Assembly (NCBI GenBank): GCA_963700035.1
Contig: CAVOWE010000018.1
Coordinates: forward strand, 32,731 to 96,730
Direction of reading: 5' to 3'
DNA: 64,000 nucleotides
DNA from: an uncultured Thermoleophilia bacterium
GTDB lineage: Bacteria; Actinomycetota; Thermoleophilia; UBA2241
Below are positions 1 to 61,225 of the stretch, piece by piece; position 1 is the first letter of the stretch; each line of letters begins with the position of its first letter. Below the pieces are notes generated by a model. The model was not told the DNA's origin. It ran no database searches and was given only the letters and a program-made list of their open reading frames with translations. A program made the translations under genes and the position numbers.

Positions 1-992
1 ACCGCCCAGTTGGGGTACAGCGCAGCGAGCTCCGTATAGCTCGTGACCTCCGTCCCCGCGAAGGAGATGGGAGTCGAGAAGTTCGGGATCGCGTAGCTGA
101 CGCCCACGAGCAGGATGAAGCCGGCGATCATCGAGACCCAGATGGACCGCACGATGCCCTTCGCCGCCTGGACGTTGGCCGATATCGTCTCCTCGGACAC
201 GTGGGCCGAGGCGTCGTAGCCGGTGAACGTGTACTGGGCGTTCAGCATGCCGAGAGCGATGATGTAGAGCGGCACCGTCCACCCCGAGAGCCCCTTGAAC
301 GCGTTCCACCCCTCGCTCCCGAACATGAACGAGACCGAGTTGTGGGTCGAGCCGTCGGCGGGCCCCCAGTACAGGATGGACGACGATGATCGCGACACCG
401 ATGAGGTGCCAGTAGACCGAGACGTCGTTGAGCAGGGCCACCAGGCGGACGTTGAAGGTGTTCAGGAGGCCCTGCAGGAAGAGGATGACGGCCAGGATGC
501 CGAGGACGTGCCCGGGCGAGAGCCAGTACACTTCGCCGGTCAATTCGGCAAGGAGGGCCGCGACCATGAGAACGCGCAGCCGAAGCTGATGCCGGCCGTG
601 ACGGCGACCTGCCCCAGCAGGTTGAACCAGCCGGTGAACCACGACCACCAGGGCCCGCTCTTGCCGGGCGCCAGCTTGGCCGACCAGTAGTAGAGGCCGC
701 CGGCCGTCGGGTAGGCCGAGCAGATCTCGGCCATCGACAGGCCGGCGAAGATGACCATCACGCCGACGAACAGCCAGCCCCAGTTCATGACCGGCGGGCC
801 GCCGTGGTGCAGGCCGTACTGGTATACGGTTAGGCAGCCCGACAGGATGGAGATGATGGTGAAGGAGATGGCGAAGTTGGAGAAGCCGCTCATCTTCCTG
901 TCGAGCTCTTGGGCGTAGCCCATCTCGTGGAGGCGTTGGGTATCCTCGTCTACTTGTTGGACCGGTGGTGATGCGGAGCCCTGTTCGACCAC
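1..992 (-). pseudogene. APC-superfamily amino-acid/choline-type permease. The 3' end lies beyond the window start. The frame is broken twice as sequenced.
   Basis: ORF 540..992 gives a typical APC N-terminus (FSNFAISFTIISILSG, AYPTAGGLYYWSAKL, FNLLGQVAVTAGISFG). Manual minus-strand translation continues the protein in other frames (LMVAALLAELTGEVYWLSPGHVLGILAVILFLQGLLNTFNVRLVALLNDVSVYWHLIGV, then ILYWGPADGSTHNSVSFMFGSEGWNAFKGLSGWTVPLYIIALGMLNAQYTFTGYDASAHVSEE). This implies frame changes near 570 and 378. Confidence 0.8.
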
Positions 993-1162: not shown

Positions 1163-1795
1163 CTACTTCCCCAGCAGCGCGTCGATCTTCTTGACCCCGT
1201 CGCTGGCGTCCTCGGCGTAGGCGTCGGCGCCGATCTGGTCGGCCCAGCGCTGCGTGCAGGGGGCGCCGCCGACCACGGTCTTGTAGGCGAGGCCCTCGTC
1301 CTTCACGGTCTTGATGACCTTGCGCTGCTCCTCCATGGTGGTGGTCAGCAGGGCGCTCATGCCGATCACGTCGGCGTTCTCCTCCTTGGCCCTGGCGATG
1401 AAGCTCGCCGCGGGCACGTCGCGGCCGAGGTCGCTGACCTCGTAGCCGTTGGCCTTGAGGTAGGCGATCACGATGGCCTTGCCGATGTCGTGCACGTCGC
1501 CCTGCACGGTGCCGATGACGATGCGCCCCTTGACCTCGGCGGCCTCGCCCTCGAGGGCGGCGTTGGTCACCTCGGTGGCCCCGGCCATGGCGTCGGCGCT
1601 CATCATCAGCTCGGGGAGGAAGAGCTCGCCGGACTCGAAGAGCTCGCCGACCTCCTGGATGCCCTTGACGAAGCCCTTGGCCATGATCTCGCCGGGGGCG
1701 ATGCCCTGGTCGAGGGCGCGCTGCGCGACCTCTTCGGCGGCGGCGCGGTCACTGGTGATGATCGCCTGGGCTGCTTCTTCGTAGATGTCGGCCAT
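1163..1795 (-). CDS. Cobalamin-binding corrinoid protein of a methyltransferase system (MtbC/MttC/MtmC-like)
   Basis: 210-aa ORF with the B12-binding DxHxxG signature (GDVHDIGK), followed by MSALLTTT and VVGGAP. It has an N-terminal helical cap region. The stop codon is TAG. Confidence 0.9.
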   Translation of the reverse strand: MADIYEEAAQAIITSDRAAAEEVAQRALDQGIAPGEIMAKGFVKGIQEVGELFESGELFLPELMMSADAMAGATEVTNAALEGEAAEVKGRIVIGTVQGDVHDIGKAIVIAYLKANGYEVSDLGRDVPAASFIARAKEENADVIGMSALLTTTMEEQRKVIKTVKDEGLAYKTVVGGAPCTQRWADQIGADAYAEDASDGVKKIDALLGK

Positions 1796-2434: not shown

Positions 2435-3383
2435 ATGAGCGTGCGGCTCTTCTTCGCCACGGACGTGCACGGCTCGGAGGCCTGCTGGCGGAAGTTCATC
2501 AACTCCGGCAAGCACTACGAGGCAGACGTCCTCATCCTCGGCGGCGACATGACCGGCAAGGCGGTCGTGCCGATCATCGACAACGGCGGCGGCAAGTACA
2601 CGTTCCACATGCAGGACGTGCGTCGCGACATCGACGGCGCCGACGCGCTGGCCGTCGATCAGCGCGCGATCCGCGATCACGGCTACTACCCCGTGGTCAT
2701 GACTCCCGAAGAGAGAAACGAGTTCACCAGCGACCCCGACAAGCTCGACGAGCTCTTCCACGCGCAGATGCGCCGCACCGTCGAGGAGTGGGTCGCCTGG
2801 GCCGACGAGCGTCTGGCCGGCGGGAACATGCGCTGCATCGTGTGCCCCGGTAACGACGACCGCCCCGACATCGACGAGACTGCTCGCCACTTCTTCGCAG
2901 ATCGAGCTCGGCGAGGGCAACGTCATCGACCTGCCCGAGGGGTACCAGCTCGCCTCCAGCGGCTGGACCAACCTCACGCCCTGGGACACGCCGCGCGAGG
3001 AGGAGGAGCCGGCGCTCAAGGCGCGCATCGAAGGCATCGTCGCGCAGGCCACCGTGAGCCCCGACCGCCTCGTCCTCGGCCTGCATTGCCCACCCTACGA
3101 CACGCAGCTCGACGTGGCGCCGAAGATCGATTGGGAGACGCTCACGGTGAAGGGGCAGGACGTCGCCCATGTAGGCTCCACCGCCGTCAAGGAGGTGATC
3201 GAACAGGTCCAGCCGATCCTCTCGCTCCACGGGCACATCCACGAGAGTCGCGCGGCCGTGCGCATCGGGAGCACGCTCGCGATCAACCCCGGGAGCTCGT
3301 ACGTCGAGGGCACGCTGTCCGGCTGCATCGTCGAGCTCGACGGCAAGAAGAAGCTGAAGCGCTACAGGCTCACGATGGGGTGA
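2435..3383 (+). pseudogene. Calcineurin-like metallophosphoesterase with one frame change as sequenced
   Basis: GAAGGAGG RBS lies 5 nt upstream of the ATG at 2435. Motifs present are FATDVHGS, GGDMTGK, CPGNDD and LHGHIHES. The frame switches from frame 2 to frame 0 near 2879 (DIDE / LLATSSQIELGEGNVIDLPEGY). Confidence 0.8.
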
Positions 3384-3465
3384 GGGTGACTTCGAGCCTG
3401 CTGTAAGTGGGGGGACGGCGCTCTTGTTGTCGTCCGGAACCGTTTTGTGTCAGGAGGTTGCGTCT

Positions 3466-5221
3466 ATGGCGACCAATGCGCCAGAGCAAACGCTCTTCGT
3501 GCGAAAAGCAAGTGGTCTTGTCAAAGGCTGGTCGAGTGGGGACGGCTTCCGCTACTCGTTCTTCTCGGTCAACCTGTTCCTCGCGATCTGGTCGATCTCG
3601 TACGCCACATTCATCCCGGGTGGCAGTCTGTTCTGGTCGATCGTCATCACCGCGGCGTTCATCATCCTCGAGATCATCGTGTACGCGGGTCTCATCTCGG
3701 CGATGCCGCGCGCCGGTGGCGACTACGTGTGGATGACGCGTATCTTCAACAGCGCGATCGGCTTCATCATCGCCGCTGTAGGCTGGTGGTTCATCCTCTG
3801 GCTCTGGACGCCGATCTACGCCGACATGGGCGTCCAGACCACGGTCAAACCGATCTTCCGCATCCTCGGCCTCAATGGGGCGGCAGATTGGCTGGGTACC
3901 CGCACGGGCATCTTCGTGGCCTCGCTGGTGGTCATCGCCATCGCCTCGACACTCGTGGCCGTAGGCATGAAGACCTATGCCAAGTTCCAGAAGTGGGCGA
4001 TGTGGATCGGCCTCGCCGGCGTGATCATCTGCGGCATCCTGCTGCTCGTCACCTCCGGTGCCTCCTTCAAGGAGAAGTTCAACGCCGCCGCCGAGAAGTA
4101 CTACGGCGGCGACAATCGGCACGCTCAATCTCACAGAAGTACGAGACCGACGAGTCCGGCTACTTCGTCTACGACGACGACGGTCTTGCCATCAATACCG
4201 TGGAGGGCGAGACCTACCCCGACGCGTTCGCGGCGGTCGAGGCGGTCGGCTCGGGTACTGGCATGCCGACGTCGACCTTCGCCGGTGGCCTGAGCTGGGC
4301 CACCTGGACGCTCATCCCGTTCATGATGTTCTGGATGGCGTGGCCGAACTGGGGGGCGACGCTGTACGGCGAGGTCCGAGGGGCCAAGGACTTCCGCAAG
4401 AACATCTACATGATGCTCGGCGGGCTCCTGGTGCCGACGGCCATCACCTTGGCCTTCCTGGGGTTGATGACCTGGAAGGTGGGCTACCAGGCGTTCATGG
4501 GCATGATGGCCTCGTGGTGGTACTACTCCACGGCGGGTACCAACATCTCGCCGATCGGTGGCGACTACATCTCGCCGACGGCGATGATCTCCTGGATCGT
4601 CCCCAACGCGGCGTTCCAGATCATCCTCATCGCCGGCATCTCGCTGCTGCTCTTCGGCTGGTTCGGCACGCTCTTCCTCTCGTCGACGCGCATGATCTTC
4701 GCGTCCGCGTTCGACCGCATCCTGCCTGAGGGCGCGGCGAAGGTGACCTCCGGCGGCGTGCCGGTCGTCGCCCTTGTGCTGATGACCATCCCGTCGATCA
4801 TCATGGCGGCGCCTCTACGCCTACACGCCGATCGATGCCGAGAAGGGCGTCACCATCGTCAAGCTGTTCACCTACGACGCGACGGTGGGCATCCTGATCA
4901 TGTTCCTGGGCTCTGCCCTCGCCTTCATGATCATGAAATGGCGGGCGCAAGAGCATCTGGGACAGCTCCTCGCTGCCCAAGAGCGGCATCGCCGGCATCC
5001 CCTGGATGTCCATCATCGCCGCAATCTACTCGGCGTTCCTGGTGTTCAACCTCTACCTGTTCGTCACGGACGCGCTCTACGGCGTGAACAACTCGAAGTC
5101 CGCCATCTTCATGGCGATCCTGTACGTGGCCGCGCTCGTCATCTGGATCATCGCCTGGGCGACGCGCAAGCGCCAGGGCATGGCCCTCGAGGCGGTCGCC
5201 AAGGAGATCCCGGTCGAGTAA
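3466..5221 (+). pseudogene. APC-superfamily permease with three frame changes as sequenced
   Basis: AGGAGG RBS precedes the ATG at 3466. Multi-TM APC-like sequence (MPRAGGDYVWMTRIF, MFWMAWPNWGATLYGEVRGAKDF, LFLSSTRMIFASAFDRILPE) can be followed through frames 1, 0, 1 and 2, with switches near 4117, 4810 and 4945. The gene ends at a TAA at 5219. Confidence 0.8.
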
Positions 5222-5347: not shown

Positions 5348-6751
5348 ATGAAGATCTTGACGCGAATGGGCGACAGCTCCAACGTGGAACTCACGCTGGA
5401 CGAGCTGCGCAGAGAGTTTGAGGAGGGATCGGAGTTCGCCGCCAAGAAGGCCAAGGTCCCGGTCCTCACGGAGAACGAGGTCGACTACCTCGTCGACATG
5501 TTCGCCGCCCCCACGCGCATCTGGGGCTGCCAGCGCGGCAACGAAGTCGTGATGACCAAGGACGGCTGCGTCAACGCGCTCAACTCCTCGCGGATGTCGA
5601 GCGGCGTGGTCGCGCCGGTCAACCGCGAGGTCGGCGTGCGCCTCTTCGAGTCGATGCTCGGCTTCGACTCCATGGAGGTCTCGCACAACGACTACTCGGT
5701 GAAGCCCCAGCGGTTCCTCAAGGCGCTCGAGATGCTCCACGTCGAGCTGCTCATGGAGACGACGATCTTCCCGCTCCTCTACGGCTTCATGCCGAACCTG
5801 GGGCTGTACTACCGCCCGGACGGGTCGTTCGAGAACCCGAGCGACCTCATGCCGTTCGGCAAGATCGCCGAGGCGCGCAAGACGCAGGAAGAGGCGGGCG
5901 AAGCCTGTCTCGCGGACTGCATCGAGATGAGCGACTGCATGGTCGAGATGGGCGCCGACGGCATCGACTTCGACACCGTCGCGTCCACCGGCGACGCCGA
6001 GTTCTACGCCGTCCTCAAGGCCTGCGATCACGTCGCCAACGAGACCGGCCTGCCGGTCGAGATCGGCATGTCGGCAGAGATGGTGCTCGGCTTCCACGGC
6101 GAGCTCGAGTACAACGGCAAGCGCCTCGCCGGCATGTGGGCGCACGAGCAGCTGCAGATCTGTGAGGAGGCCGGCTGCGCCATCTTCGGCCCGGTCTCCA
6201 ACACCAACACCAGGAAGACCGTCCCGTGGAACCTCGGCAAGGCGCTGACCTTCATCAAGGCCTGCACCGAGATCGCCAAGATCCCCGTCCACCCCAACGT
6301 GGGCATGGGCGTCGGCGGCGTGCCGATGTTCGAGACCCCGGCCGTCGACGTCGTGACGCGCTGCAGCGCCGCGATGATCGAGATCGGCAAAGCGGACGGG
6401 TTGTAGGTGGGTACTGGTGACCCCGCCGGCATGCACATCGCGCATCTGCTGGCCTCGTCGATGGGTGGGATCCGGGCCGCCGGAGATCTGGTGGCAAGGA
6501 TGCAGCTCAGCAAGAAGATGAGGATCACGGAAGCCAAGCAGTATGTGGCCGACAAGCTCCACGTGACGCCGCTCGACCTGTCCGACCCGACGATGATGCG
6601 CCAGCTCCGCGAGGATCTGGACATCGGCGTGATCACGGGCGTGCCGGGCATCGCCAAGGGCCTCGCAGCCAAGGCGCGTATCGCCGAGCTGCTCGACATC
6701 GAGATCAACTGCGTCGAGCAGTTCAAGAAGAAGACCGGGCTCCACTACTAG
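5348..6751 (+). CDS. mtbB: Dimethylamine:corrinoid methyltransferase MtbB homologue, 467 codons including one in-frame UAG (predicted pyrrolysine)
   Basis: AAAGGAGG RBS precedes the ATG at 5348. ORFs 5348..6406 and 6407..6751 share one frame and are separated only by the TAG. Strong resemblance to remembered MtbB blocks ([83 protein letters not shown]). Confidence 0.9.
6404..6406 (+). other. In-frame TAG, predicted pyrrolysine (recoding) codon of mtbB
   Basis: Context is [26 protein letters not shown]. As I recall, archaeal MtbB reads VDGI-Pyl-IGVGDPLGMPIAHIM at this point. The protein arithmetic (352 + 1 + 114 = 467) matches canonical MtbB length. Confidence 0.85.
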
Positions 6752-7852: not shown

Positions 7853-9235
7853 TCAGGAGACCGGCACCTCGAGGCCCATGCCGGCGAGGTCGCTGCGCAC
7901 GTCGTCCATGGCCTTCTGGTACTCGCTGTTCACGATCCGCTTGGTCTTGGCGTCGTAGACCTCCTGGAAGGTCATGCCCTTGTCGGGATCCTTCAGCTTG
8001 TCGCCGAAGAGCGGGAAGATCTTCTGCGCGATGGGTTCTGCCTCGGCGCGCGTCAACTTCGCCGTCGCCAGGCCGATCTCGGCGTGGAACTTGTGGTCGT
8101 CCGGCACCAGCGAATCGGACTGCACCGACATGGCCGGGTGCCCCGAGAAGATGTTGCCGCCGGAGGTCACGATGGCGAGCAGGTAGCAGGCCATCTCGTA
8201 GTGGTACTGCTTGGTGCCGGAACCGCCTCCGAGGTATGGCAGGTTGACCATCGGGTAGCCCATGTTGCGGCCGATGGCGGCGTTGCTCATGGCGATCGCC
8301 CAGATGAGCGGCTTGGTCGACGAGAGGTGCAGCTTGCTGTGCAGCGGCGCGTTGTAGTGGTAGCTGCCGCGGAAGATCAGGTTGCCCATGATCATGTAGC
8401 AGGTGGCCGTGACGGCGACGCCCTCGGCGCCGCCGGCGTAGCCGCCGAAGAGCGGCGTCGAGGTGGAGCCGATGTTGGCGCTGATGCTGTTGTAGAAGGC
8501 GACCTTCTGCAGCGCCTCGTAGCCCACCACCATCTCGGAGAGGAAGTCGATGAGGAAGCCGTCGCTGGGGCGCAGGCCGAAGGCCGGGTAGCTGGCGGCG
8601 AACATCGAGGCCGGCTGGGAGGCCGCGGAGATGCCGTTGATGATCGGCAGGCCCGCGCGGCCTGAGCGGCGGATGCCTTCGCGGGCGAGGCGCACGGTCT
8701 TGCAGGCCGCGAGGATCTCCTGCGGCGAGCGCACGCGCGAGTCCTTGCCGCGCAGATGGAGGATCGACGGTACGCTGACCGAGTCGACGATGTTGAACGA
8801 CGCCATCTTCTCGACGGTGTCCATGTACACTTGCTCGTCGGTCGTGTAGATGCCGCCGCCGACGTGCACCCACGGCCGGTCGTCGGTGGTGTCGGGGCGC
8901 CGGCCGTGCATGGTCTTGCGCTCGCGGCCTTCGCCGAAGGTCGTGGCCTTGGGCGCCTGCGAGCAGGCGAGCAGGATCTCGTCGCGCGTGAACTGCATCA
9001 CGCGGTTGGTCTCGGGGCAGTACGCGCCGGCCTCGGCGAGGAGGTCGACGGCCGCCTGGAAGACGCGGTCGGTGAGGTCGTCGTCGGTGTTGATGATGGT
9101 CTCTTTGTCCCACTTGACCTGGTGGCGCGCGATCACCTCGGTGAGCGTGGGGACGTAGCGCTTCATGTAGTAGTCGGTCTCGGAGGTCAGCGGCCCGACT
9201 TCGGCGCGGTCGAATACTTCGATCAGGTCGATCAT
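7853..9235 (-). CDS. MtmB-family (monomethylamine methyltransferase-like) protein, uninterrupted, with no in-frame UAG
   Basis: 460-aa ORF with a GAGGAG RBS. It resembles remembered MtmB blocks: FDRAEVG (MtmB YDRAKVG), PLFGGYAGGAEGVAV (PIFGGYAGGIEETTIV), and the C-terminal KGMTFQEVYDAKT...LAGMGL (GKTFQECYDVKT...LEDLGL). The region SGRAGLPIINGISAAS aligns to MtmB AGRPGMGV-Pyl-GPETSLS. Confidence 0.8.
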   Translation of the reverse strand: MIDLIEVFDRAEVGPLTSETDYYMKRYVPTLTEVIARHQVKWDKETIINTDDDLTDRVFQAAVDLLAEAGAYCPETNRVMQFTRDEILLACSQAPKATTFGEGRERKTMHGRRPDTTDDRPWVHVGGGIYTTDEQVYMDTVEKMASFNIVDSVSVPSILHLRGKDSRVRSPQEILAACKTVRLAREGIRRSGRAGLPIINGISAASQPASMFAASYPAFGLRPSDGFLIDFLSEMVVGYEALQKVAFYNSISANIGSTSTPLFGGYAGGAEGVAVTATCYMIMGNLIFRGSYHYNAPLHSKLHLSSTKPLIWAIAMSNAAIGRNMGYPMVNLPYLGGGSGTKQYHYEMACYLLAIVTSGGNIFSGHPAMSVQSDSLVPDDHKFHAEIGLATAKLTRAEAEPIAQKIFPLFGDKLKDPDKGMTFQEVYDAKTKRIVNSEYQKAMDDVRSDLAGMGLEVPVS

Positions 9236-9283: not shown

Positions 9284-9931
9284 TCAAGACACCAGCTTGG
9301 TGGCCAGGACGACGGCATCGTAGGCGCTGCCGCTCCATCCGTCGGCGCCGATCGTGTCGGCCCACTCCTTGGTGGTCGCGCCGCCGCCCACGATGACCTT
9401 GTACTTGTCGCGGGTGCCCTGGTCCTTGAGCGCGTCGATGACGTCCCGCTGGCCGATGAGCGTCGTGGTGAGGAGAGCCGAGATGGCGATGATGTCGGCG
9501 TTCGTTTCGTTGGCCTTGTCGATGAACTTGAAGAGGTCGACGTCGATGCCGAGGTCGTGGACCTCGAACCCGGAGGTCTCGAAGAGGAGCTTGAGGATGT
9601 TCTTGCCGATCGAGTGAAGGTCGCCCTTCACGGTGCCGATGACGATCGTGCCCTTCTTCTCGTCGGCGCCACCGGCTTCCTTGATCTTGGGCTCGAGCAC
9701 GGTCATGGCCGACTGGAAGGCCAGAGCGGCCTGCATGAGCTCGGGGAGGAAGATGTCTTCGCACTCGAACTGCTCGCCGATGACGTTCAGCCCCGGCAGC
9801 AGGCCCTTGTCGATGACCTCGCGGGGGTCCATCCCGTCGGCCAGGGCCTTGTTGACGGCCTCGAGGACGGCGTCCGGATCCTGGTCGACGATCGACTGCT
9901 TGAGCTGTTCGTGCATGGTCTCGTTTCCCAT
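9284..9931 (-). CDS. Cobalamin-binding corrinoid protein (second copy)
   Basis: DxHxxG signature GDLHSIGK, followed by ISALLTTT and IVGGGA. The ATG at 9931 has a GAAGGGG RBS. The ORF track starts at a GTG at 9940. Confidence 0.9.
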   Translation of the reverse strand: MGNETMHEQLKQSIVDQDPDAVLEAVNKALADGMDPREVIDKGLLPGLNVIGEQFECEDIFLPELMQAALAFQSAMTVLEPKIKEAGGADEKKGTIVIGTVKGDLHSIGKNILKLLFETSGFEVHDLGIDVDLFKFIDKANETNADIIAISALLTTTLIGQRDVIDALKDQGTRDKYKVIVGGGATTKEWADTIGADGWSGSAYDAVVLATKLVS

Positions 9932-10012
9932 TACGTGCACCCCTTCTTGTCGTGTCTGGATGTGATCGTGAAGATCGTGGAGTACGGCGTCGGCGCCGCG
10001 GGGCGGGCGCCG

Positions 10013-11473
10013 CTAGGCGTCGCCCCCGGCCTCGACCCAGGTGGCTTCGCCGGCGACGAGGCCGGGGAACTCGGCGCGGATCTGCGCGTCCAGCTCGGGC
10101 GCCCAGACGGCCGGGTTCGGCTGCGACAGGAGGCCGCGGGCGAAGGCGCGCGCGCGGCTCTGCGCGTCCGGCCGTCCGGCCGCCTCCCATTGCGCGCGCA
10201 TGCCGCGGTCGGCGACCTTGGGGAAGACCGCGGTGGTCTTCATCAGCGACTTGGTGTGCTTGCTCTTCATGAAGTCGCCGCCCGGTCCCACCTGGGCGAT
10301 GACCTCGAGGGCCAGGTTGTCTTCGCTGAACTCCAGGCCGCGCACGACGCGCTTGTTCATGAGGGCGATCTCGTCGTCGACCACGGCCTTGCCGAAGTCG
10401 AACGCCATGAGCGAGCTGAACAGGCCGCCCATGTTGAGCAGCGTGGCGCCGGCGAGCACCGCGCCGAGCGTGTTCATGCCGGTCTCGTAGCCCGACTGCG
10501 CGTCGTTCGAGTGCGCGTTGGTGAGGCCGATGTAGCCGCCGGTCGGGACGTTGTAGAAGTGCCCGAGCTGGGCCTGGGCCATGCAGAGCATGCCGGTCTC
10601 GATGGCGCCCGGGGCGTAGGCCCCGGTGCGCATGTCGGCGACCGTGGGCAGGCTGGCGTAGATGATCGGCGTGCCTGCCCTGACCATCTGCTGGAAGACG
10701 GTGATGGCGAGGAACTCGGCGTTGCCCACGATGAGCGTGCCCATGAGCGTCATCGGCGAGGTGAGGCCGGCGTTGGGCACCACGGTCGTGTACACGGGCA
10801 GGCCGCGCTCGGTGAGATACATCACCGCTTCCGTGGAGTCGACGTCCATGGTCAGCGGGCTGACCATCGGGCAGTAGTGATGGTTGATGATCGGCCGCTC
10901 GCGATAGGCGTCGGCGCCGCCGGCGATGAGCTCGCCGAGCTTGAGCACCTGGCGCAGGTCGTCCATGTTGGGGGTGTTGCTGCGCACCGGCTTGAGGCAG
11001 TTCTTGAGCGCCGGGTAGAAGCGGCTGAGGCTGAACTGGCCGGGGGGCGCGTCGTCGGCGAGCGTGGAGATCGAGAAGATGTCGAAGCCCTTGAGCTCGT
11101 TGATGAGGTGGGCGATGTTGGCGATGTCGGTGGAGGTGGCGCGGCGCTCGACACCGGTCGCGGGGTCGACCACGTTGGGCGCGGAGCTGCCGGTGACGAC
11201 CACGGGCCCGCACTCGGGGATCGTGCGGTCGAACTGCGGGTCGCGGCCGCGGAAGGTGAAGCTCGTCGGGCAGACTTCCAGGTACTTGCCGATCACTGCG
11301 GGGGGGAACTTGACGAGCCCATCGGCGTCGACGCTGCAGCCGTGGGCCTTGAAGACCTCGCGGGCGGGCCCGTGGTGAGCCAGGATGCCGACGTTCTCGA
11401 GGACCCACAGCGACGCTTCGTGGACTCGCTCGACCTGCTTGGCGGTGAGTAGCTCAACGTGCTTCATGTGCAT
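10013..11473 (-). CDS. MttB-superfamily (trimethylamine methyltransferase family, COG5598-like) protein, non-Pyl
   Basis: 486-aa uninterrupted ORF with family-typical blocks (LTAKQVERVHEASLWVLENVG, HHYCPMVSPLT, GPGGDFMKSKHT). It sits directly downstream of the DeoR gene and upstream of the corrinoid gene. The stop codon is TAG. Confidence 0.85.
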   Translation of the reverse strand: MHMKHVELLTAKQVERVHEASLWVLENVGILAHHGPAREVFKAHGCSVDADGLVKFPPAVIGKYLEVCPTSFTFRGRDPQFDRTIPECGPVVVTGSSAPNVVDPATGVERRATSTDIANIAHLINELKGFDIFSISTLADDAPPGQFSLSRFYPALKNCLKPVRSNTPNMDDLRQVLKLGELIAGGADAYRERPIINHHYCPMVSPLTMDVDSTEAVMYLTERGLPVYTTVVPNAGLTSPMTLMGTLIVGNAEFLAITVFQQMVRAGTPIIYASLPTVADMRTGAYAPGAIETGMLCMAQAQLGHFYNVPTGGYIGLTNAHSNDAQSGYETGMNTLGAVLAGATLLNMGGLFSSLMAFDFGKAVVDDEIALMNKRVVRGLEFSEDNLALEVIAQVGPGGDFMKSKHTKSLMKTTAVFPKVADRGMRAQWEAAGRPDAQSRARAFARGLLSQPNPAVWAPELDAQIRAEFPGLVAGEATWVEAGGDA

Positions 11474-11494: not shown

Positions 11495-12280
11495 TCATAC
11501 AGCGACCACCCGCAGGCCCCGCCGCAGCATCTCGTCGCGCACGTCGTCGTCGACGCCGTCGTCGACGACGACCGCCTGCACGTCGTCGAGGGTACAGATG
11601 ACGAAGTCGCCGACGACGCCGATCTTGCTGCCGTCGGCGAGGACGATCACCTCGCCGCGAGTCTGGCGGATCATGGCGCGTTCGACGCCGGCGAGGCCGA
11701 CGCTGGCGGTGGTGATGCCCTCCTCGAGGCTGACACCGTCGGCGCCGAGGATGAACTTGGAGGCGTGGAAGCCGCTGAGGACCTCCAGCGACAGGGCGCC
11801 TTCGAGCGTGTTCGAGCGTGGCCGGTAGAGGCCGCCGAGGAGGATGACGTCCAGCGCCTTCTCCTGGGCCGAAGACACGGCGCCGAGGTTGTGCGTGACG
11901 ATGCGCGCGTGAAGGTCGGGGTCGACGTGTGAGAGGACCTGCGTGGCGGTGGTGCCCGAGCCCAGGAACACGGTCTCGCCCGGCTTGATCATGGCGGCCG
12001 TCGCCTTGGCGATGCGCTGCTTCTCCTGCGCGTGCGCGCGCACGTTCGTGACGTAGCGCGGCTCCTCGACGATGTGCTGCTTGAGGAGGGCCCCGCCGTG
12101 GGTGCGCGAGAGCAGCCCCTCGGTCTCCAGACGTTCGAGGTCGCGGCGGATGGTCATCTCGGAGACGCCGAGCAGGTCGCTCAGCGCGGAGACGCGCACG
12201 CCACGCTGTTCGGCGAGTATCTCCAGGATGCGACCCTGCCGTTCGGCCGGGAACATCTCGCGCATGTCTGGCGACGACAT
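11495..12280 (-). CDS. DeoR/GlpR-family transcriptional regulator
   Basis: HTH region (ILEILAEQRGVRVSALSDLLGVSEMTIRRDLERLETEGLL) plus a DeoR C-terminal sensor domain. Alternative in-frame starts lie at 12265 and 12322. Its stop is 21 nt before the MttB-family start. Confidence 0.85.
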   Translation of the reverse strand: MSSPDMREMFPAERQGRILEILAEQRGVRVSALSDLLGVSEMTIRRDLERLETEGLLSRTHGGALLKQHIVEEPRYVTNVRAHAQEKQRIAKATAAMIKPGETVFLGSGTTATQVLSHVDPDLHARIVTHNLGAVSSAQEKALDVILLGGLYRPRSNTLEGALSLEVLSGFHASKFILGADGVSLEEGITTASVGLAGVERAMIRQTRGEVIVLADGSKIGVVGDFVICTLDDVQAVVVDDGVDDDVRDEMLRRGLRVVAV

Positions 12281-12434
12281 CGAGCTCCCCAAAGGCTGTG
12301 ATGTGTTGTCAGAATCGCTCATAATCGAACGCTGTCCTGCAATTCTCAGGCTGGAGCCGGTGAATGTCAAGTGTTCTGGCGTGTGCGAGTCTGTTTTTGC
12401 GTGGGAGAACGTTGCCGCCTGCACGCGCTCACGA

Positions 12435-12468
12435 GAAAGGCGGCGGGCCGTGAGGCCCGCCGCCTTTC
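12435..12468 (-). terminator. Perfect 15-bp hairpin downstream of cydB
   Basis: GAAAGGCGGCGGGCC, loop GTGA, GGCCCGCCGCCTTTC. Confidence 0.55.
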
Positions 12469-12501
12469 GCCGGTCGGTGTGGGGAAGACGGTGCGGCCGC
12501 G

Positions 12502-13521
12502 TCAGTACTCCGCGTCGGCCGCCTTCGTCTTGCCCCTGAAGGTCCTGTAGACGAGCGCCGTGTACGCCAGGACGATCGGGCAGAAGATGAGCGCGATGAC
12601 GAGCATGACCTGCAGCGTCAAGCGTCCGGAGGCGGCGTTGGTGACCGTCAGGCTGGTCTCGGGCGGCGTGCCCCGCGCCGGCACGATCTCGGGGAAGTTG
12701 CCGACCGCGGCGATGCCGGCCAGGGCGATGATGGTGACCGCCGAGCCGAGGAAGGACTTGAGCTCGGCACCCTCCTTCGTCATCTGCCAGATGGTGTAGA
12801 GCAGCGACAGCGCGAGGAGGACGAGGAAGAACCAGCCGAGCGGCCGGCCGAACACGTTGTCCGACGCGCGCGAGACCGTGACGATGGTCGCGACGGAGGT
12901 CGCGACCGCCAGCACCACGCACACCCAGAAGGAGATCTTGCGGTACTGCAGCGCGCGGGCGTGCAGCGCGCCCTCCGACTTGAGCGCCACCCAGGCCGCG
13001 CCGTGTGTGACGATCAGGAACAGGCCGGTGACCGCCACGAGCAGGGAGTACGGGTTCAGCAGTTGCAGGAACGTGCCCGTGTAGTCGCCGTTGGCGTTCA
13101 TCGGGACGCCGCGGATGACGTTGCCCAGGGCGCAGCCGACGAGGATCGCCGGCACCAGGCTGCCGAGGAAGAAGGCGCCGTCCCAGACCCTGCTCCAGTT
13201 CTCGTCACGATGGCGGAACTCGAGCGAGACGGCGCGCAGGATCAGGCCGAACAGCACGAGCATGATGGCGAGGTAGAAGCCACTGAACGTCATCGCGTAG
13301 ACCATGGGGAAGGCCGCGAACACGGCGCCGGCGCCGGTCACCAGCCAGACCTCGTTGCCGTCCCAGATCGGCCCGATCGAGGCGCGGACCACGCGCTTCT
13401 CGTCCTCGGTCCTGGCGATGAAGGGGTAGAGGACGCCGGCTCCGAGGTCGAAGCCGTCGAGGACCACGTAGCCGGTGAGCAGGAAGGCGACCAGGAAGAA
13501 CCAGATGTTCACGAGGCTCAT
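12502..13521 (-). CDS. cydB: Cytochrome bd ubiquinol oxidase subunit II
   Basis: 339-aa polytopic ORF with the typical N-terminus (VVLDGFDLGAGVLYPF), immediately downstream of cydA. Confidence 0.9.
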   Translation of the reverse strand: MSLVNIWFFLVAFLLTGYVVLDGFDLGAGVLYPFIARTEDEKRVVRASIGPIWDGNEVWLVTGAGAVFAAFPMVYAMTFSGFYLAIMLVLFGLILRAVSLEFRHRDENWSRVWDGAFFLGSLVPAILVGCALGNVIRGVPMNANGDYTGTFLQLLNPYSLLVAVTGLFLIVTHGAAWVALKSEGALHARALQYRKISFWVCVVLAVATSVATIVTVSRASDNVFGRPLGWFFLVLLALSLLYTIWQMTKEGAELKSFLGSAVTIIALAGIAAVGNFPEIVPARGTPPETSLTVTNAASGRLTLQVMLVIALIFCPIVLAYTALVYRTFRGKTKAADAEY

Positions 13522-13525
13522 CTCG

Positions 13526-14890
13526 TCACCTCCCCGCGCCGACGGGAGCGGGCTGCGCGGAGGCCCGCTCGGCCTCCAGCATCTCGACGACGTCGTCCGG
13601 GCCCTTGCGGATGATCCCCAGGAAGATCCGCAGCCAGGCGATGAACAGGATCAGGTAGATGAGGCCGAACAGGCCGAGCGTGGTCCAGACTTCGCCGGCG
13701 GAGACCGTCGGCGAGACGCCGTCGGTGGTGCGCAGCAGGCCCTGGACGATCCAGGGCTGCCGCCCCACCTCGGTGGCGGCCCAGCCCATGTTGATGGCGA
13801 TGAGGGGGAGCGGGAAGCACACGACCAGCAGCCACAGCAGCCAGCGCGCCTTCTCGAGGCGCTTCAGGAAGTGCATGACGAGCGCCAGCAGCATCACCCC
13901 GATGAACACGAACGACAGGGCGATCATCAGATGGTAGCTCTGGAAGGTGATCTGAGCCGGGGGCCGGTCGGCGGGCGGGACGCTGTCGAGGCCCTTGACC
14001 ACGCGGTCCGGGCTGAGACCCAGCATGAGGCTCAGGCCGCTGGGGATGCTGACACCGGTCGTGCCGCCGTCGCCGTTCACCCAGCCGAAAAGGTACAGCG
14101 GCGCGTTCTTCCGCGTCTCAGTGAGGTTCTCGAAGGCCGCCATCTTCACCGGCTGATACTCTTCGACTACCAGCGCGTGCCAGTGACCGATGAAGGGCAT
14201 GGCCGCCGAGGCGAGGAGCCCGACGACGAGCGCGGTGACCAGCGCCTGGCGGGCGAAGTGCAGGTGGCGCTTCTTGAGCAGGTACCAGGCGCAGATGCTG
14301 GCCACGACGAAGCATCCGGCGATGACGCAGGCCACGATGGTGTGCACGTAACGCGGCGGGAAGGACGGGTTGAGGGCGGCGGCCCAGAAGTCGGTGAGGA
14401 TGGCCCGGCCGTCCTCTATGGCGTAGCCGGCCGGGGTCTGCTGCCAGGAATTGGCGATGAGGATCCACACCGCCGACAGCAAGGTCCCGATCATCACGAG
14501 CCACGCCGAGGCGTAGTAGAAGCCTTTGGAGACCTTCTTGCGGCCGAACAGCAGCACGCCGAGGAAGGTCGACTCGAGGAAGAAGGCGAGAAGGCCCTCA
14601 GCCGCCAGGGGCGCTCCGAAGATGCTGCCCACGAAGCGCGAGTAGTCCGCCCAGTTGGTGCCGAAGGCGAACTCCATGGTGATCCCGGTGGCGACCCCGA
14701 TGGCGAACGTGGTCGTGAAGAGCTTGATCCAGAAGTTCGAGGCCGCCTTGTCGGCGGGGATGTTGCTCTTGTAGTAGCGCCGCTCGGAGAACACGACCAT
14801 GAGCGCCAGGCCGATGCTGATGGGCACGAAGATGAAGTGATAGCCCACGGTGAACGCGAACTGGATACGGGAGAGCATCAAGGCGTCCAT
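13526..14890 (-). CDS. cydA: Cytochrome bd ubiquinol oxidase subunit I
   Basis: The start was chosen at MDALMLSRIQFAFTVGYHFIFVPISIGL (ATG at 14890). The longer ORF reaching 14974 adds an Arg-rich non-protein-like extension. Confidence 0.9.
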   Translation of the reverse strand: MDALMLSRIQFAFTVGYHFIFVPISIGLALMVVFSERRYYKSNIPADKAASNFWIKLFTTTFAIGVATGITMEFAFGTNWADYSRFVGSIFGAPLAAEGLLAFFLESTFLGVLLFGRKKVSKGFYYASAWLVMIGTLLSAVWILIANSWQQTPAGYAIEDGRAILTDFWAAALNPSFPPRYVHTIVACVIAGCFVVASICAWYLLKKRHLHFARQALVTALVVGLLASAAMPFIGHWHALVVEEYQPVKMAAFENLTETRKNAPLYLFGWVNGDGGTTGVSIPSGLSLMLGLSPDRVVKGLDSVPPADRPPAQITFQSYHLMIALSFVFIGVMLLALVMHFLKRLEKARWLLWLLVVCFPLPLIAINMGWAATEVGRQPWIVQGLLRTTDGVSPTVSAGEVWTTLGLFGLIYLILFIAWLRIFLGIIRKGPDDVVEMLEAERASAQPAPVGAGR

Positions 14891-15000
14891 GCGTGTCCGC
14901 CACCTCCTGGGAGAGCGTGTGTTTCCCGCCTGCGCGCGACACCCCCGGTCACTGCGCGAACGGCTTGGCGACACTTATTTTCACTGTCGGTGTAGTGTCA

Positions 15001-15623: not shown

Positions 15624-15983
15624 GGGGGCGAACAGGTCTCGACATGGGCTGTACCGAGGTGGGAGCAGCAGGCCGAGGTCCGGTGGCCTCGTTAAACTGC
15701 CGGAACCATATACTTGCCGAGAATAAGACTCTCGCACTCGCCGCCTGACCTAGTCAGGTAGCGCATCGCGCCCGGCTCGTCCACGGCTGGGGCCTGCGGT
15801 GTCATCAAGTGGACTGGGGTGCGGTCGCGCTGCTCCGAGCGAGCGCACCCGAGACTGATCGGAGCTGGCAGACGGCACCCGGCCGACGCGGGGGCCGCGA
15901 GCGAGATCAATGCGCCGGCTAAGCCTGTAGAGACTCCGCCGAGGCGTCCGTGGACGCGGGTTCGATTCCCGCCGCCTCCACCA
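15624..15983 (+). ncRNA. ssrA: tmRNA (ssrA)
   Basis: The 5' GGGGGCG pairs with the 3' CGCCUCC-ACCA, including a G3:U wobble (alanine identity). The 3' end GGACGCGGGTTCGATTCCCGCCGCCTCCACCA forms a T-arm. The tag reading frame at 15716..15748 encodes AENKTLALAA followed by a stop. An extended -10-like TGGTATACT lies at 15587..15595. Confidence 0.9.
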
Positions 15984-49155: not shown

Positions 49156-50612
49156 TTGGCATCCATCGCACGCCCACCGATCGAGCCGCTCAAGCCGGCG
49201 TTCACCTTCCACGTATCACTCATCCCGAGCAGCTGGACCGCCTGAAGCAGGCGACGCTCGACATCCTCGAGACGGTCGGCGTGCAGTTTCAGTCAGAGAA
49301 GGCGCTGGACGTACTCGCCGAGCACGGCGTGCGCGTCGACCGCACCGCGCAGATCGCCAAGTTCCCGCCCGAGATCGTGCTCGCGGCGATGGCGCAGGCG
49401 CCGCGGCGCTTCGGCCTGGGCGCCCGCGACGCGAGCTGCGACATCCCCGTCGGCGACGGCAACACCTACTGCACCACCGACGGCAGCGGCGTGGAGATCA
49501 TCGATTTCGCGACGCGCGAACGACGCCAGTCCACGAAGGCCGACGTGGCCGACGTGACCCGCATGCAGGACTATCTCTCGAGCATCGCCTTCTGGTGGCC
49601 GACGCTGAGCGCCGGCGATTACGGCGAGACTGCGCAGCTCCACGAGCTCGACGCGGGCTGGAACAACACGGTCAAGCACCTCCAGGGTTTTGTGCAGGGC
49701 GAGCGCGAAGCCCGCTACGCCGTGGAGATGGCCACCGTGATCGCCGGCAGCGCCGAGGAGCTGCGGCGCCGGCCGGTGCTGAGCGAACTCATCGGCGTGA
49801 ACTCGCCGCTGGTCGTCGACAAGGACGGCATCGAGGCGGCGCTCGTCTTGGCGGAGGTCGGCGTGCCCGTCTGCTGGGTGACGGCGCCGATGCTCGGTAC
49901 GACGGCGCCGGCGACGAGGGCCGGCGCCTATGCTCTCGGCGCAGCCGAGCTGGTCGCCGCGACCGTCGCGCTCGAGCTCGCCAGCCCGGGGGCGCCGGTG
50001 CTGCACTTCGCGATGCAGAGCTGGGCCGACCCGCGCACCGGCGACGTCGTGAGCTTCCCCCAGGACGGCCGCGCCCGCGCTCTGAGCACCGAACTCGCGC
50101 ACCACTGGGGCGTCCCGGCCGAGTCCGCCGCCTGCGGCACCGATTCGCCGGTCCCCGGCACCTGGCAGGCCGGCGTCGAGGAGGCGATGGACTTCGTGCA
50201 AGCCGCCCAGGAGGGCTCCGACCTGATGCCGAGCATCGGCCTCGTCAACGTCTATACGCTCTTCTATCCCGAGCACCTCATCCTCGGCGACGACATCTAC
50301 CATCGCGCTCGCTTCGCGATCATGGATATCGAGGTCGACGCGGAGTCGCTCGCGCTCGAAGCGATCGCCGAGGTCGGTCCCGGGGGGCATTTTCTCGGTC
50401 ACAAGCACACGCGACGGCACATGCGCGAGGCCGTCAAGCCGGCGATCACCCACCAGCCGGGGCCCGACGGCGTCTTCCGCGATCCCCTCGAAGTGGCCCG
50501 CGAGAAGGCCGAGTGGATCTGGCGCGAGTACAGGCCGGAGCCGCTGGAAGCCGACAAGGCCGCCGAGCTCACGAAGATCCTCGCGGCGGCCGACGCCGAG
50601 CTGCGCGGCTGA
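49156..50612 (+). pseudogene. MttB-superfamily methyltransferase paralogue (non-Pyl) with one frame change near the 5' end
   Basis: GGAGG RBS and a TTG start at 49156 (MASIARPPIEPLKPAFTFHV). There is a -1 switch near 49225 into ORF 49281..50612 (EQLDRLKQATLDILETVGVQF...GPGGHFLGHKHT). No corrinoid protein gene lies nearby. Confidence 0.8.
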
Positions 50613-58284: not shown

Positions 58285-59751
58285 CTACCGCGCGGCGGCC
58301 TCCCTCGCCGCCGCGGCGATGATCGCGTCGAACTCGGCGCCGAGGTCGGCGGGGAACGGCACGGGATCGGCGGCCAGGATCTCGGCGACGCGCTCCTGCG
58401 CCTTCTCCGTCGTGCTCTTCGCGCCGGCGTTCTTCCAGCCGTCGTAGCTGCCGGTCTCGCCAAGCTTGGCCTGCCACAGCTCGCGCACGTGCGCGCGGGT
58501 GTGGTCGTCGAAGAGGTAGTTGCCGTTGAAGCCCATCTTCTTGATGAGGTCGACGGCCAGCGTCTCCTCGCTCACCTCGATGCCGGAGAGGATGCGCTTG
58601 ACCATGCCGATGATCTCGTCGTCGACGACCATGTTCTCGAGGCACAGGATGCGCGAGCCGTCGAGAAGGCCGGTGCCGAAGGTCACGTCGGCGCCGTTGG
58701 CGTAGGCCATGAACATCGCCAGCGCGTTCTCGTAGGCGCTCTGGATGCCGGGCTCCTTGGCGGTGGTGGCGCCGGCGCCGTACCAGGCGGGCACGCCGTA
58801 GAAGTCGGCCATGTGGCCCTGGCAGCTGCGCAGGAGCAGGGCCTCCGGCGAGTTGCTGGCGTAGGCGCCGCTCCGCATCTCCATGGCGGTCGGACCGCCG
58901 CCGTGGATCACCTTGGCGCCGGGGTGAGCGAGCTGCACCAGCGCGGCGCCGCTCAGGAACTCGGCGTTGGTGATGACTGCGGAGCCGGCGATGGTGATGG
59001 GGCCGGTCGCGCCGAGGATCGGCATGGGGTAGAAGCTCACCGGTATGCCGGCCTCGGCCAGCACCAGGGCGAGGTCCATGCCGAAGCGCTCCTGGTGGAG
59101 CGGGCTCACGGTGCAGATGATGGCCGTGAACATCGGCCGGCGCTTCAGCTCTTCAGCTGCCGCCGGCCAGGCACTCGGCCATCCTGATCAGGCTGCGCGC
59201 CTCCCAGTCTTCCTTGATCGACACGACGATGTTGTGCTTCTCGCTGTTGCGTACGCAGGCGTCGAACTCGTGCAGCACGCGCGTCTCGGGCGGGCAGTCC
59301 TGGGCACTGACCACGGCGCTCGTGGCGCTGACGTTGTCGAGCGCCTGCACGACCCTGGCGCAGTTCTCGAGGTCCTCCTTGCGTGACGAGCGCACCTCGC
59401 CCGTGTTCGGATCGCGAGAGAAGACGCCGCAGCCGTCCGAGCTGATGTAGACGTGCTCGCCGTCGAGCGGCAGGTCGTACTCGGGGTTGCGAGCGCCGAG
59501 GGTGAACTCGTGCGGCACGGTGCTCATCGCCTTCTCGACGACGGCGGCCGGGATCCTCGCCACCGTCGTCTTGCGGTCGACGGTGGCGCCGTTGGCCTCG
59601 AGGATGTCGAGGGCGGTCTGCGAGTGGAACTTGACGCCCACGCTCTCGATGACGTCGAGGGTGGCCTCGTGGATCTGGCTGCACCTCGTCCGGACGAGAG
59701 CAGGTCGAGCCTGACGCGCTTGCCGACGTAGCACTTGTCTGCGTAGGCCAT
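58285..59751 (-). pseudogene. MttB-superfamily methyltransferase paralogue (non-Pyl), downstream copy of a tandem pair, with three frame changes
   Basis: AAAGGAG RBS and an ATG at 59751 (MAYADKCYVGKRVRLDLLS). Two switches lie near 59703 and 59690 (…DEVQ…IHEATLDVIESVG) and one near 59160 (LAGG / AAEELKRRPMFTAIICTVSPLHQERFG). The stop codon is TAG. Confidence 0.8.
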
Positions 59752-59764
59752 CGGGTGGCTCCTT

Positions 59765-61225
59765 TCAGAAGCGGCCGGACTCGACCGCGGCGATGATGTC
59801 GTCGAACTCGCGGCCGAGCTCCTCGGGGAACTCGGACGCCGGGAGAGGCGAGGATGCCGTCGGCGACGGCCCGCGCCTTGTCTTCGAGGCACGGGCTGCC
59901 GGCGGCCCTCCAGCCGTCATAGGTGCCGGTCTCGCCGAGGCGCGCCTGCCAGAGCTCGCGCACGTGGGAGCGCGTGTGCTGCTCGAACAGGTAGTCGCCG
60001 CGGAAGCCCAGCTTCTTGATGAGGTCGACGGCCAGGTTCTCCCGGTCGACGGTGACGCCGCGCAACAGGCGCGTGACCATGCCGAACACCTCGTCGGCGA
60101 TGACCAGCTCCTCGAGGCTCATCTGCTGCACGCTGTCGAGGAGGCCGGCGCCGAAGAGGAAGTCCGCGCCGGCGGCCATCTCGAGCACCATGCCGAGCGT
60201 GTTCTCGTAGGCGGATTGCGCCTCGGGCTGCTTGGCCTTGGTGCCGCCCCAGCCGAGGCCGGCCGGCAGGCCGTAGAACCGCGCCATCTGTGCCTGCGCG
60301 GCGCGGAGCAGCAGAGCCTCGGGCACGTTGGCGAAGTAGGCCCCCGTGCGCATGAAGAGCGCCGTGGGGCCGCCGGCGTGCACGATCTTCGCGCCGGGGC
60401 AGGTGAGCTGCACCGCCGTGATGGCAGCGAGGATCTCGGTGTTGTTGACGACCGCCGTGCCGGCCGGCGTGACCGGCGCCGTGGCTCCGAGGATCGGCAT
60501 CGGGTAGAGCATCAGCGGGATGCCGGCCTCGGCGAGCTCGAAGGCCAGCTCCATGCCGAAGCGCTCCTGGTGGAGCGGGCTGACGGTGCAGAGGATGACC
60601 GAGAAGGTTGGCCGGGTCTTCAGCTCGGCTGAGCCGCCGGCCACCGCTGCGGCCATGCGGATCAGCGGCCGCGCCTCGGCCGCGTCCTTGATGCTCACGA
60701 CGATGCTGTGCTTGCGCGAGGCGCGCATGCAGGCGTCGAACTCGTGCAGGACGCGGGACTCCTCGGGGGTGTCCTGGGCCGAGACGAGCGCCGAGGTGGC
60801 CGAGAGATTGGTCAGACCGTCGACGACGCGGGCCGCGTCGAAGACGTCCTGCTTGACGCTCGGCCGCACCGTGCCGTCGGCGTCGCGGACGAAGGTGGCG
60901 CAGCCGTCGGAGGCGAGGTACACGTGCTCGCCGTCGAGCGGCAGGTCGAAATCGGGGCGTGCGCCCGCCGAGCGTGAAGCCGGCGGGCAGGGTCTCGAGC
61001 GCCTCGCTCGACGGCGCCGCCGGGAATGCGGGCCACCGTCGTCTCGCGGTCCACGGCGGCGCCGTGGGCCTCGAGCACGTCGAGAGCGCGCTGCGAGTGG
61101 AACATCACGCCGACGTCGGCCAGCACGTCGAGCGAGGCTTCGTGGATGCGCTCCACGTCTTCGGCCGAGAGTATCCTCAGCGGGCGCCGGCGGCCGACGA
61201 AGCGGCCCTCTGCGTGAGCGCTCAT
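59765..61225 (-). pseudogene. MttB-superfamily methyltransferase paralogue (non-Pyl), upstream copy of a tandem pair, with three frame changes
   Basis: AGGAGG RBS and an ATG at 61225 (MSAHAEGRFVGRRRPLRILSAEDVERIHEASLDVL). Switches lie near 61025, 60975 and 59850. It ends ...EFDDIIAAVESGRF-TGA at 59765. Confidence 0.8.

Follow-up and report, generated by a model that had tools for sequence, protein, structure and literature searches.

The window analysed here is a 64,000-nucleotide stretch of DNA from an uncultured Thermoleophilia bacterium (contig CAVOWE010000018.1), and the gene under study encodes a relative of the monomethylamine methyltransferase MtmB in which isoleucine stands at the position that MtmB fills with pyrrolysine (Pyl). 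By homology, this MtmB-like protein belongs to a discrete, conserved subfamily that spans Thermoleophilia, Desulfobacterota, Chloroflexota and Spirochaetota and whose members share at least 55% identity with it. Very probably it functions as a corrinoid methyltransferase (MT1) with a substrate other than monomethylamine (MMA), as an earlier, sequence-only reading of the gene had proposed: the gene is linked to a corrinoid protein gene, some lineages carry complete sets of MT1, corrinoid protein, second methyltransferase (MT2) and activase, and the coding sequence is under purifying selection. Our more specific proposal, for which we see about an even chance, is that the protein is a Pyl-independent substrate:corrinoid methyltransferase that acts on a phosphorylated choline-type amine and methylates the neighbouring corrinoid protein, Cor1.

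7853..9235, minus strand: the MtmB-like gene, a non-Pyl MtmB-family methyltransferase of 460 amino acids, with Ile199 (ATC) at the Pyl202 position in the motif LPI-I-NGIS

The open reading frame (ORF) runs from an ATG start through 460 sense codons to a TGA stop with no internal stops, and a Shine-Dalgarno sequence (GAGGAG) lies 7 nt 5' of the ATG. The sequence-only reading had described it as uninterrupted and MtmB-like over its whole length, and the search with the Pfam MtmB profile (PF05369) agrees, matching positions 1-450 of 450 with E=5.1e-68 and 230.4 bits against a gathering cut-off of 25. The motifs on which that reading relied (FDRAEVG, PLFGGYAGGAEGVAV, KGMTFQEVYDAKT and GMGL) are all present in the protein. 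None of the NCBIfam equivalog models matches it.

When the PDB is searched with phmmer, the hit is MtmB1 of Methanosarcina barkeri (1L2Q/1NTH, E=8e-44). The alignment is gap-free at the Pyl site, pairing AGRPGMGV-X-GPETSLS with SGRAGLPI-I-NGISAAS, and Pyl202 therefore corresponds to Ile199; a MAFFT alignment that includes 117 homologues puts the two residues in the same column. A sense codon at this site had been predicted, with either the isoleucine or the adjacent asparagine as the replacing residue, and the two alignments agree on the isoleucine. An AlphaFold2 model of the protein (mean pLDDT 80.5, pTM 0.85) superposes on 1L2Q in Foldseek with a TM score of 0.84 (E=2e-28), which is the TIM-barrel fold of MtmB. 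E205, E229, E259 and Q333 of MtmB, the residues around Pyl in the 1L2Q structure, align with I202, L228, T258 and L332, all of them invariant in the clade. By alignment, the protein falls within the MtmB superfamily but lacks the features that define Pyl-type MtmB, namely Pyl itself and the acidic residues of its pocket, which are replaced.

A TAG codon masked by an assembly error, a danger pointed out with the original prediction, is ruled out at codon 199, since ATC and TAG have no letter in common at any position and three Joint Genome Institute (JGI) metagenomes contain independent contigs with a gene for the identical protein; the homologues described next, with Ile or Leu in 116 of 116, say the same.

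A search of 5.8 billion proteins lists 120 relatives with 54-93% identity to the MtmB-like protein. Among the 116 listed relatives that are full-length, the Pyl position holds Ile in 88, Leu in 28 and a stop in none, and the motif LPI[IL]NGIS is invariant. An exhaustive HMMER pass over 1.84 billion representatives at 50% identity finds 779 clusters of the MtmB family, two of which make up the clade of the MtmB-like protein (representatives 71% and 57% identical to it); the next full-length clusters outside the clade have at most 39% identity. The top 150 clusters include more than 100 that are full-length and Pyl-free; in these the GRPG motif is conserved, and the Pyl position that follows it can hold nearly any residue. 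By this measure, Pyl-free MtmB homologues form a large and diverse superfamily. The sequence-only reading held that non-Pyl MtmB-family enzymes had no assigned substrate; this is outdated, because in 2026 a function was assigned to a non-Pyl MtmB homologue of Methanococcoides methylutens Q3c: the protein, MtqB (ACT9XH_RS04775), demethylates tetramethylammonium and choline and prefers choline (PMC13044021). Non-Pyl MtmBs had been noticed before MtqB (PMC9768040). Among the Pyl-free MtmB homologues, MtqB is the only one whose function is known.

The survey of non-Pyl homologues that the sequence-only reading had recommended places the subfamily in the four phylum-level groups named above. One genome per GTDB species was scanned, which gave 80 loci, all from uncultured organisms (related loci bear labels such as L004 and L005 below). 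About 59 of the 80 come from metagenome-assembled genomes (MAGs) of Thermoleophilia/Actinomycetota, at 84-96% identity, and one of these bears a deltaproteobacterial label. In the remainder, identity is 66-72% for Desulfobacterota/Syntrophales and a single Pelolinea, and 55-57% for Spirochaetota and a single unclassified MAG. The closest relatives of the window locus are L005, L006 and L074. The habitats are those of uncultured Thermoleophilia from soil, peat and sediment, and also of anaerobic Desulfobacterota and Spirochaetota. Against ten orthologues, dN/dS of the MtmB-like gene is 0.12-0.20, the range of purifying selection, and about 90 positions of the protein are invariant across the four phyla. 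These dN/dS values rule out a pseudogene.

The MtmB-like gene lies in a minus-strand operon, the other members of which are as follows.

11495..12262, minus strand: regulator of the DeoR/GlpR family, with HTH_DeoR and DeoRC domains
10013..11473, minus strand: non-Pyl MttB-family methyltransferase, 486 amino acids, uninterrupted, with Leu317 at the Pyl334 position, as in MtgB
9284..9940, minus strand: Cor1, the cognate corrinoid protein, with B12-binding_2 and B12-binding domains, 215-218 amino acids
6821..7747, minus strand: LicA-type protein of the choline/ethanolamine kinase family, 308 amino acids, 105 nt 3' of the MtmB-like gene

Read along the minus strand, the order is DeoR, MttB-like, Cor1, MtmB-like and kinase, with short gaps. 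The most likely start of Cor1 is the Met at 9931, and its gene ends 48 nt 5' of the MtmB-like start; the protein is MtgC/MtbC-like, scoring under the equivalog cut-offs. Among solved structures, the best match to the MttB-like protein is MtgB, which acts on glycine betaine (E=2e-67). The kinase matches Pfam PF01633 (7.6e-31) and the PDB entries 3DXQ (1e-40) and 4R77, LicA of Streptococcus pneumoniae (3e-24). A longer DeoR ORF, reaching 12922 and overlapping cydB, is probably a spurious 5' extension. As regards this context, the sequence-only reading was right about the corrinoid protein and the non-Pyl MttB homologue, which are indeed on the same strand as the MtmB-like gene; it overlooked that this is the minus strand, that a choline-kinase gene is adjacent and that a TAG-bearing mtbB gene converges on the operon. 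This last gene and two others complete the island within the window.

5348..6751, plus strand: gene for an MtbB-type dimethylamine methyltransferase, with an in-frame TAG at 6404-6406 (352 amino acids, Pyl and 114 amino acids, 467 in all)
3457..5218, plus strand: gene for an APC-family permease, in four pieces and three reading frames (intact orthologue at L014:13525-15153)
2435..3380, plus strand: metallophosphoesterase-like gene with weak Pfam Metallophos matches and one frameshift near 2880-2893

The conservation of the island can be gauged by tblastn of its proteins against the 39 Thermoleophilia loci in which the flanks measure 4 kb or more on either side.

DeoR regulator: 39 of 39 loci; also in L056, L057, L059 and L062
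Cor1: 39 of 39 loci
MttB-like protein: 38 of 39 loci
LicA-type kinase: 34 of 39 loci
APH-family kinase, 390 amino acids, adjoining the MttB-like gene: 34 of 39 loci
Metallophosphoesterase: 33 of 39 loci; also in Spirochaetota L086
APC permease: 31 of 39 loci
mtbB: 28 of 39 loci

Most Thermoleophilia loci, L014 for example, have the island genes on one strand. The segment comprising mtbB, the permease and the phosphoesterase is inverted in the window, L007, L010 and L074, and the same four lack the APH-family kinase. Where it occurs, this homoserine-kinase-like phosphotransferase (L014:6602-7774) lies directly 5' of the MttB-like gene, and in Spirochaetota L086, too, it has MttB as a neighbour. 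Perhaps an analogue of MthK, the choline kinase of Eubacterium limosum, it was either lost from the window locus or never present there.

Outside the Thermoleophilia, just as within them, the Cor1 gene lies directly 5' of the MtmB-like gene wherever a related locus extends far enough in that direction, and all related loci with 4 kb or more on each side have a Cor1 gene. In Desulfohalobiaceae the order is MarR, choline kinase, an OpuAC-type ATP-binding cassette (ABC) importer, the corrinoid protein, the MtmB-like protein and a protein of about 740 amino acids, to which L085 adds a second kinase, an S-adenosylmethionine (SAM) methyltransferase and the activase RACo. Spirochaetota L086 has the corrinoid protein, the MtmB-like protein, a metallophosphoesterase, an APC permease, an APH kinase and MttB. 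The other Spirochaetota-type form is a divergent pair of MtmB paralogues, each with a corrinoid protein, beside RACo and Wood-Ljungdahl genes (L087 and L090), with a choline kinase in L087 and a URO-D MT2 in L090. A LicA-type kinase thus recurs in Desulfohalobiaceae and in Spirochaetota and relatives (L079, L083, L087). A pterin-binding MT2 (Pterin_bind) is present in the Desulfobacteraceae loci L059 and L062, and RACo in L061, L085, L087 and L090.

Several loci have a second, distant MtmB paralogue next to the orthologue, at 34-39% identity and likewise with Ile or Leu in place of Pyl.

L087:6177-7565, minus strand: second MtmB paralogue
L090:5107-6483, minus strand: second MtmB paralogue
L062:11407-12783: second MtmB paralogue
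L079, L083 and L073: further second MtmB paralogues

In L087 and L090 every paralogue is accompanied by a separate corrinoid protein; a choline kinase is present as well in L079, L083 and L087. The pairing suggests enzymes for successive steps.

In the pathway that we propose, the APC permease would bring a choline-type compound into the cell, and the LicA-type kinase would phosphorylate its hydroxyl group; most relatives have the APH-family enzyme as a second kinase. The non-Pyl MttB-like and MtmB-like proteins, and possibly the Pyl-type MtbB as well, would then strip N-methyl groups from phosphocholine, from its partly demethylated products or from both. In its own step the MtmB-like protein would pass an N-methyl group of the substrate to the Co(I) form of Cor1. 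The metallophosphoesterase would take off the phosphate, and the island would be under the control of the DeoR regulator. Sensors of the DeoR family usually bind phosphorylated effectors. We favour a phosphorylated choline-type substrate because the association of kinase, phosphoesterase, permease and DeoR recurs across phyla, and because of three further points: the phosphocholine precedent of MthK and MthB, the preference of MtqB for choline, and the phosphorylated ligands of DeoR sensors. As to which methyl group is removed, the MtmB-like protein is the only MT1 in L059 and in Desulfohalobiaceae, which points to a quaternary amine step; the MttB-like gene that often lies next to it speaks for a later demethylation step. 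Phosphocholine and the phosphates of dimethyl- and monomethylethanolamine are accordingly the candidates offered by one set of subfamily neighbours, and the glycine betaine series is offered by another.

A still more specific version, which we regard as unlikely, is that the Thermoleophilia island takes (phospho)choline stepwise to (phospho)ethanolamine, with the non-Pyl MttB-like protein serving the trimethyl stage, the Pyl-type MtbB-like protein the dimethyl stage and the non-Pyl MtmB-like protein the monomethyl stage. We know of no enzymes for the later steps of choline demethylation. If it existed, such an island would supply the long-missing dimethyl- and monomethylethanolamine demethylases; it would draw on three unrelated families of methylamine methyltransferases, with one enzyme from each, in an actinobacterial lineage of aerobic type, and it would mirror the metabolism of tri-, di- and monomethylamine on a phosphorylated C2 scaffold. 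The stepwise demethylation of choline to dimethylethanolamine, monomethylethanolamine and ethanolamine is known physiologically (PMC7374477).

Several observations weigh against a phosphorylated choline-type substrate. Neither the window nor the flanks of the Thermoleophilia loci yielded a gene for an MT2 or a reductive activase. The pocket geometry is unreadable in the AlphaFold2 model, because residues 201-262, which adjoin the active site, have pLDDT below 50. There are also about eleven orthologous loci in Chloroflexota, Desulfobacteraceae and Syntrophales that have no kinase and whose proteins are 66-72% identical to ours. There the MtmB-like gene and its corrinoid protein gene are accompanied by a DAO-FAO_M-GCV_T flavoprotein, in most of the loci by a PotD-like ABC importer and MttB, and in some by electron transfer flavoprotein (ETF), DeoR or a pterin-binding MT2.

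L004, L056, L057, L058, L059, L062-L064, L071, L088 and L089: flavoprotein-linked loci
L056:7546-9966, L059:5293-7725 and 11676-14090, L004:391-2811, L088 and L089: DAO-FAO_M-GCV_T flavoprotein of 806-810 amino acids, dimethylglycine/sarcosine-dehydrogenase-like

This context looks more like catabolism of the glycine betaine series. Five peripheral residues, and no others, differ between the kinase-linked and the dehydrogenase-linked orthologues. Taken alone, these five give no clue to the substrate; the near-likeness of the two groups means that one substrate class must fit both contexts.

The dehydrogenase-type context keeps alive the alternative that fares best, although we consider it rather unlikely: the protein would be a methyltransferase for the glycine betaine series (glycine betaine, dimethylglycine or sarcosine) working beside an MtgB-like MttB homologue, and the Thermoleophilia kinases would serve otherwise. 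The eleven loci with their dehydrogenase-like enzymes, several of them with ETF, fit it well, as do the invariance of the pocket motifs between the two context types and the standing of MtgB as best solved relative of the adjacent MttB-like protein. What it leaves out is the tight linkage to the kinase, the metallophosphoesterase and a DeoR regulator of the phosphate-sensing type, which are present in 33-39 of the 39 Thermoleophilia loci. Compounds of the betaine series offer a kinase no hydroxyl group. Kinase and metallophosphoesterase turn up again in other phyla, and DeoR does so beside the kinase-free orthologues. MtqB, moreover, has no activity on glycine betaine (PMC13044021).

The same enzyme is the model for a second alternative, in which free choline or tetramethylammonium would be demethylated directly, without phosphorylation. 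MtqB is the sole characterised non-Pyl MtmB homologue, and the arrangement and sizes at its locus, where the gene for this 459-residue protein lies 3' of a gene for a 216-residue MtbC-like corrinoid protein, match those in the window; the OpuAC-type importer that adjoins the Desulfohalobiaceae orthologue would also suit such a substrate. On the other hand, MtqB is described as branching near the Pyl-MtmBs, whereas the MtmB-like protein has 26% identity to MtmB1 and about 25% to those non-Pyl representatives that come closest to MtmB1. Kinases, furthermore, recur at the loci studied here and none is mentioned for the mtq locus. We judge this alternative unlikely.

A third alternative turns on the Pyl-type mtbB gene. 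Its two halves match positions 5-353 and 355-463 of Pfam Dimeth_Pyl, and a Pyl insertion element begins exactly at its TAG.

6404..6503, plus strand: PYLIS_2 element, Rfam RF02509, 64.2 bits (gathering cut-off 36), E=3.8e-13

The TAG and its context are kept in 30 of 30 Thermoleophilia orthologues; together with the PYLIS_2 element, this implies that Pyl is decoded in Thermoleophilia (Actinomycetota). ARAGORN finds no tRNA-Pyl in the window or in 87 related loci, Pfam scans of about 45 window ORFs find no pylS, pylB, pylC or pylD, and we found no literature on Pyl decoding in Thermoleophilia. The combination, in one host, of a Pyl-decoded MtbB with MttB and MtmB paralogues that lack Pyl is relevant to the divergence of the Pyl and non-Pyl enzymes. 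As mtbB shares the island in 28 of 39 Thermoleophilia loci, the MtmB-like protein might be a Pyl-independent MMA methyltransferase that completes the conversion of dimethylamine to MMA and ammonia begun by MtbB, and MtqB is weakly active on MMA without Pyl (PMC13044021). This is very unlikely: the acidic residues aligned with E205, E229 and E259 of MtmB are replaced by I, L and T, none of the roughly 20 loci outside the Thermoleophilia has mtbB, and a host that evidently decodes Pyl has no obvious reason to keep a Pyl-free MMA enzyme. Finally, that the gene is decayed or mis-assembled, either a former Pyl gene with a lost or masked TAG or a non-catalytic relic, gains something from the frameshifts in several neighbouring genes of the window and is nevertheless excluded by the intact ORF, the ATC codon, the identical protein in three independent metagenomes, the Ile or Leu in 116 of 116 listed homologues, the dN/dS of 0.12-0.20 and the roughly 90 positions invariant across four phyla.

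Other features of the window concern the surroundings of the island.

1163..1795, minus strand: Cor2, a second corrinoid protein of 210 amino acids, 45% identical to Cor1 and conserved in L010, L074, L027 and L042

Cor2 may be the partner of MtbB, and it is followed by a 150-residue N-terminal fragment of another APC permease (540-992, minus strand). There are four MttB-family genes in the 64 kb (10013-11473, minus; 49281-50612, plus; 58285-59734, minus; 59841-61180, minus), in none of which a conserved in-frame TAG was seen; they point to an expanded repertoire of predicted Pyl-free MttB paralogues in this genome. The last two of them (at 58423-59698 and 59841-61180), like the metallophosphoesterase (2435-3380) and the permease (3457-5218), are frameshifted and have intact orthologues elsewhere. 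These frameshifts are probably errors of long-read assembly, or else mark pseudogenes, and the MtmB-like gene is unaffected. Directly 5' of the DeoR/methyltransferase operon lies cydAB, encoding a cytochrome bd oxidase (12502-14974, minus strand), and cydA has the same position in L006, L007, L010, L011 and L074. With these genes beside the operon, the host likely respires oxygen, which is unusual company for corrinoid methyltransferases of the methylamine type. A tmRNA gene (15624-15983, plus strand) encodes the tag peptide AENKTLALAA.

Among the nearest known systems is MtmB of M. barkeri (1L2Q/1NTH), with which the MtmB-like protein shares the superfamily, the TIM barrel, the length, the GR(P/A)G and GGYAGG motifs and a corrinoid partner. 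The two differ in that identity is 26%, Pyl202 is replaced by Ile199, and E205/E229/E259/Q333 by I/L/T/L; the host of MtmB is a methanogen, that of the MtmB-like protein a Thermoleophilia bacterium with a cytochrome bd oxidase.

MtqB is another: it too is a non-Pyl member of the MtmB superfamily, of nearly the same length (459 against 460 amino acids), encoded directly 3' of an MtbC-like corrinoid gene (about 216 amino acids), and a choline-type substrate is the leading candidate for the MtmB-like protein too. MtqB, however, uses unphosphorylated choline or tetramethylammonium in the archaeal coenzyme M (CoM) pathway, with no kinase reported (PMC13044021). The clade studied here seems not to be orthologous to MtqB, to judge indirectly by the published description and the identities to MtmB1. 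No Methanococcoides names occur among the cluster members of 20 MtmB-family representatives.

A parallel in logic is the MthB/MthC/MthA/MthK system of E. limosum, in which MthK phosphorylates choline and MthB demethylates phosphocholine only (PMC12155760). Here as there, a kinase is combined with a corrinoid methyltransferase, the kinase gene adjoins the methyltransferase and corrinoid genes, and the window island also holds a non-Pyl MttB homologue. MthB itself is of the MttB superfamily, which is unrelated to the MtmB family of the protein studied here, and the kinase alongside the latter is LicA-type, with 308 amino acids; no MthA-type MT2 lies near the Thermoleophilia gene, and E. limosum removes one methyl group only. 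Among the papers searched, none connects an MtmB homologue with a choline kinase. The broader analogy is with the non-Pyl MttB family (MtgB, MtcB, MtpB, MtyB), which likewise shows a family of Pyl enzymes with many Pyl-free members acting on larger methylated amines, although it is a separate and non-homologous protein family.

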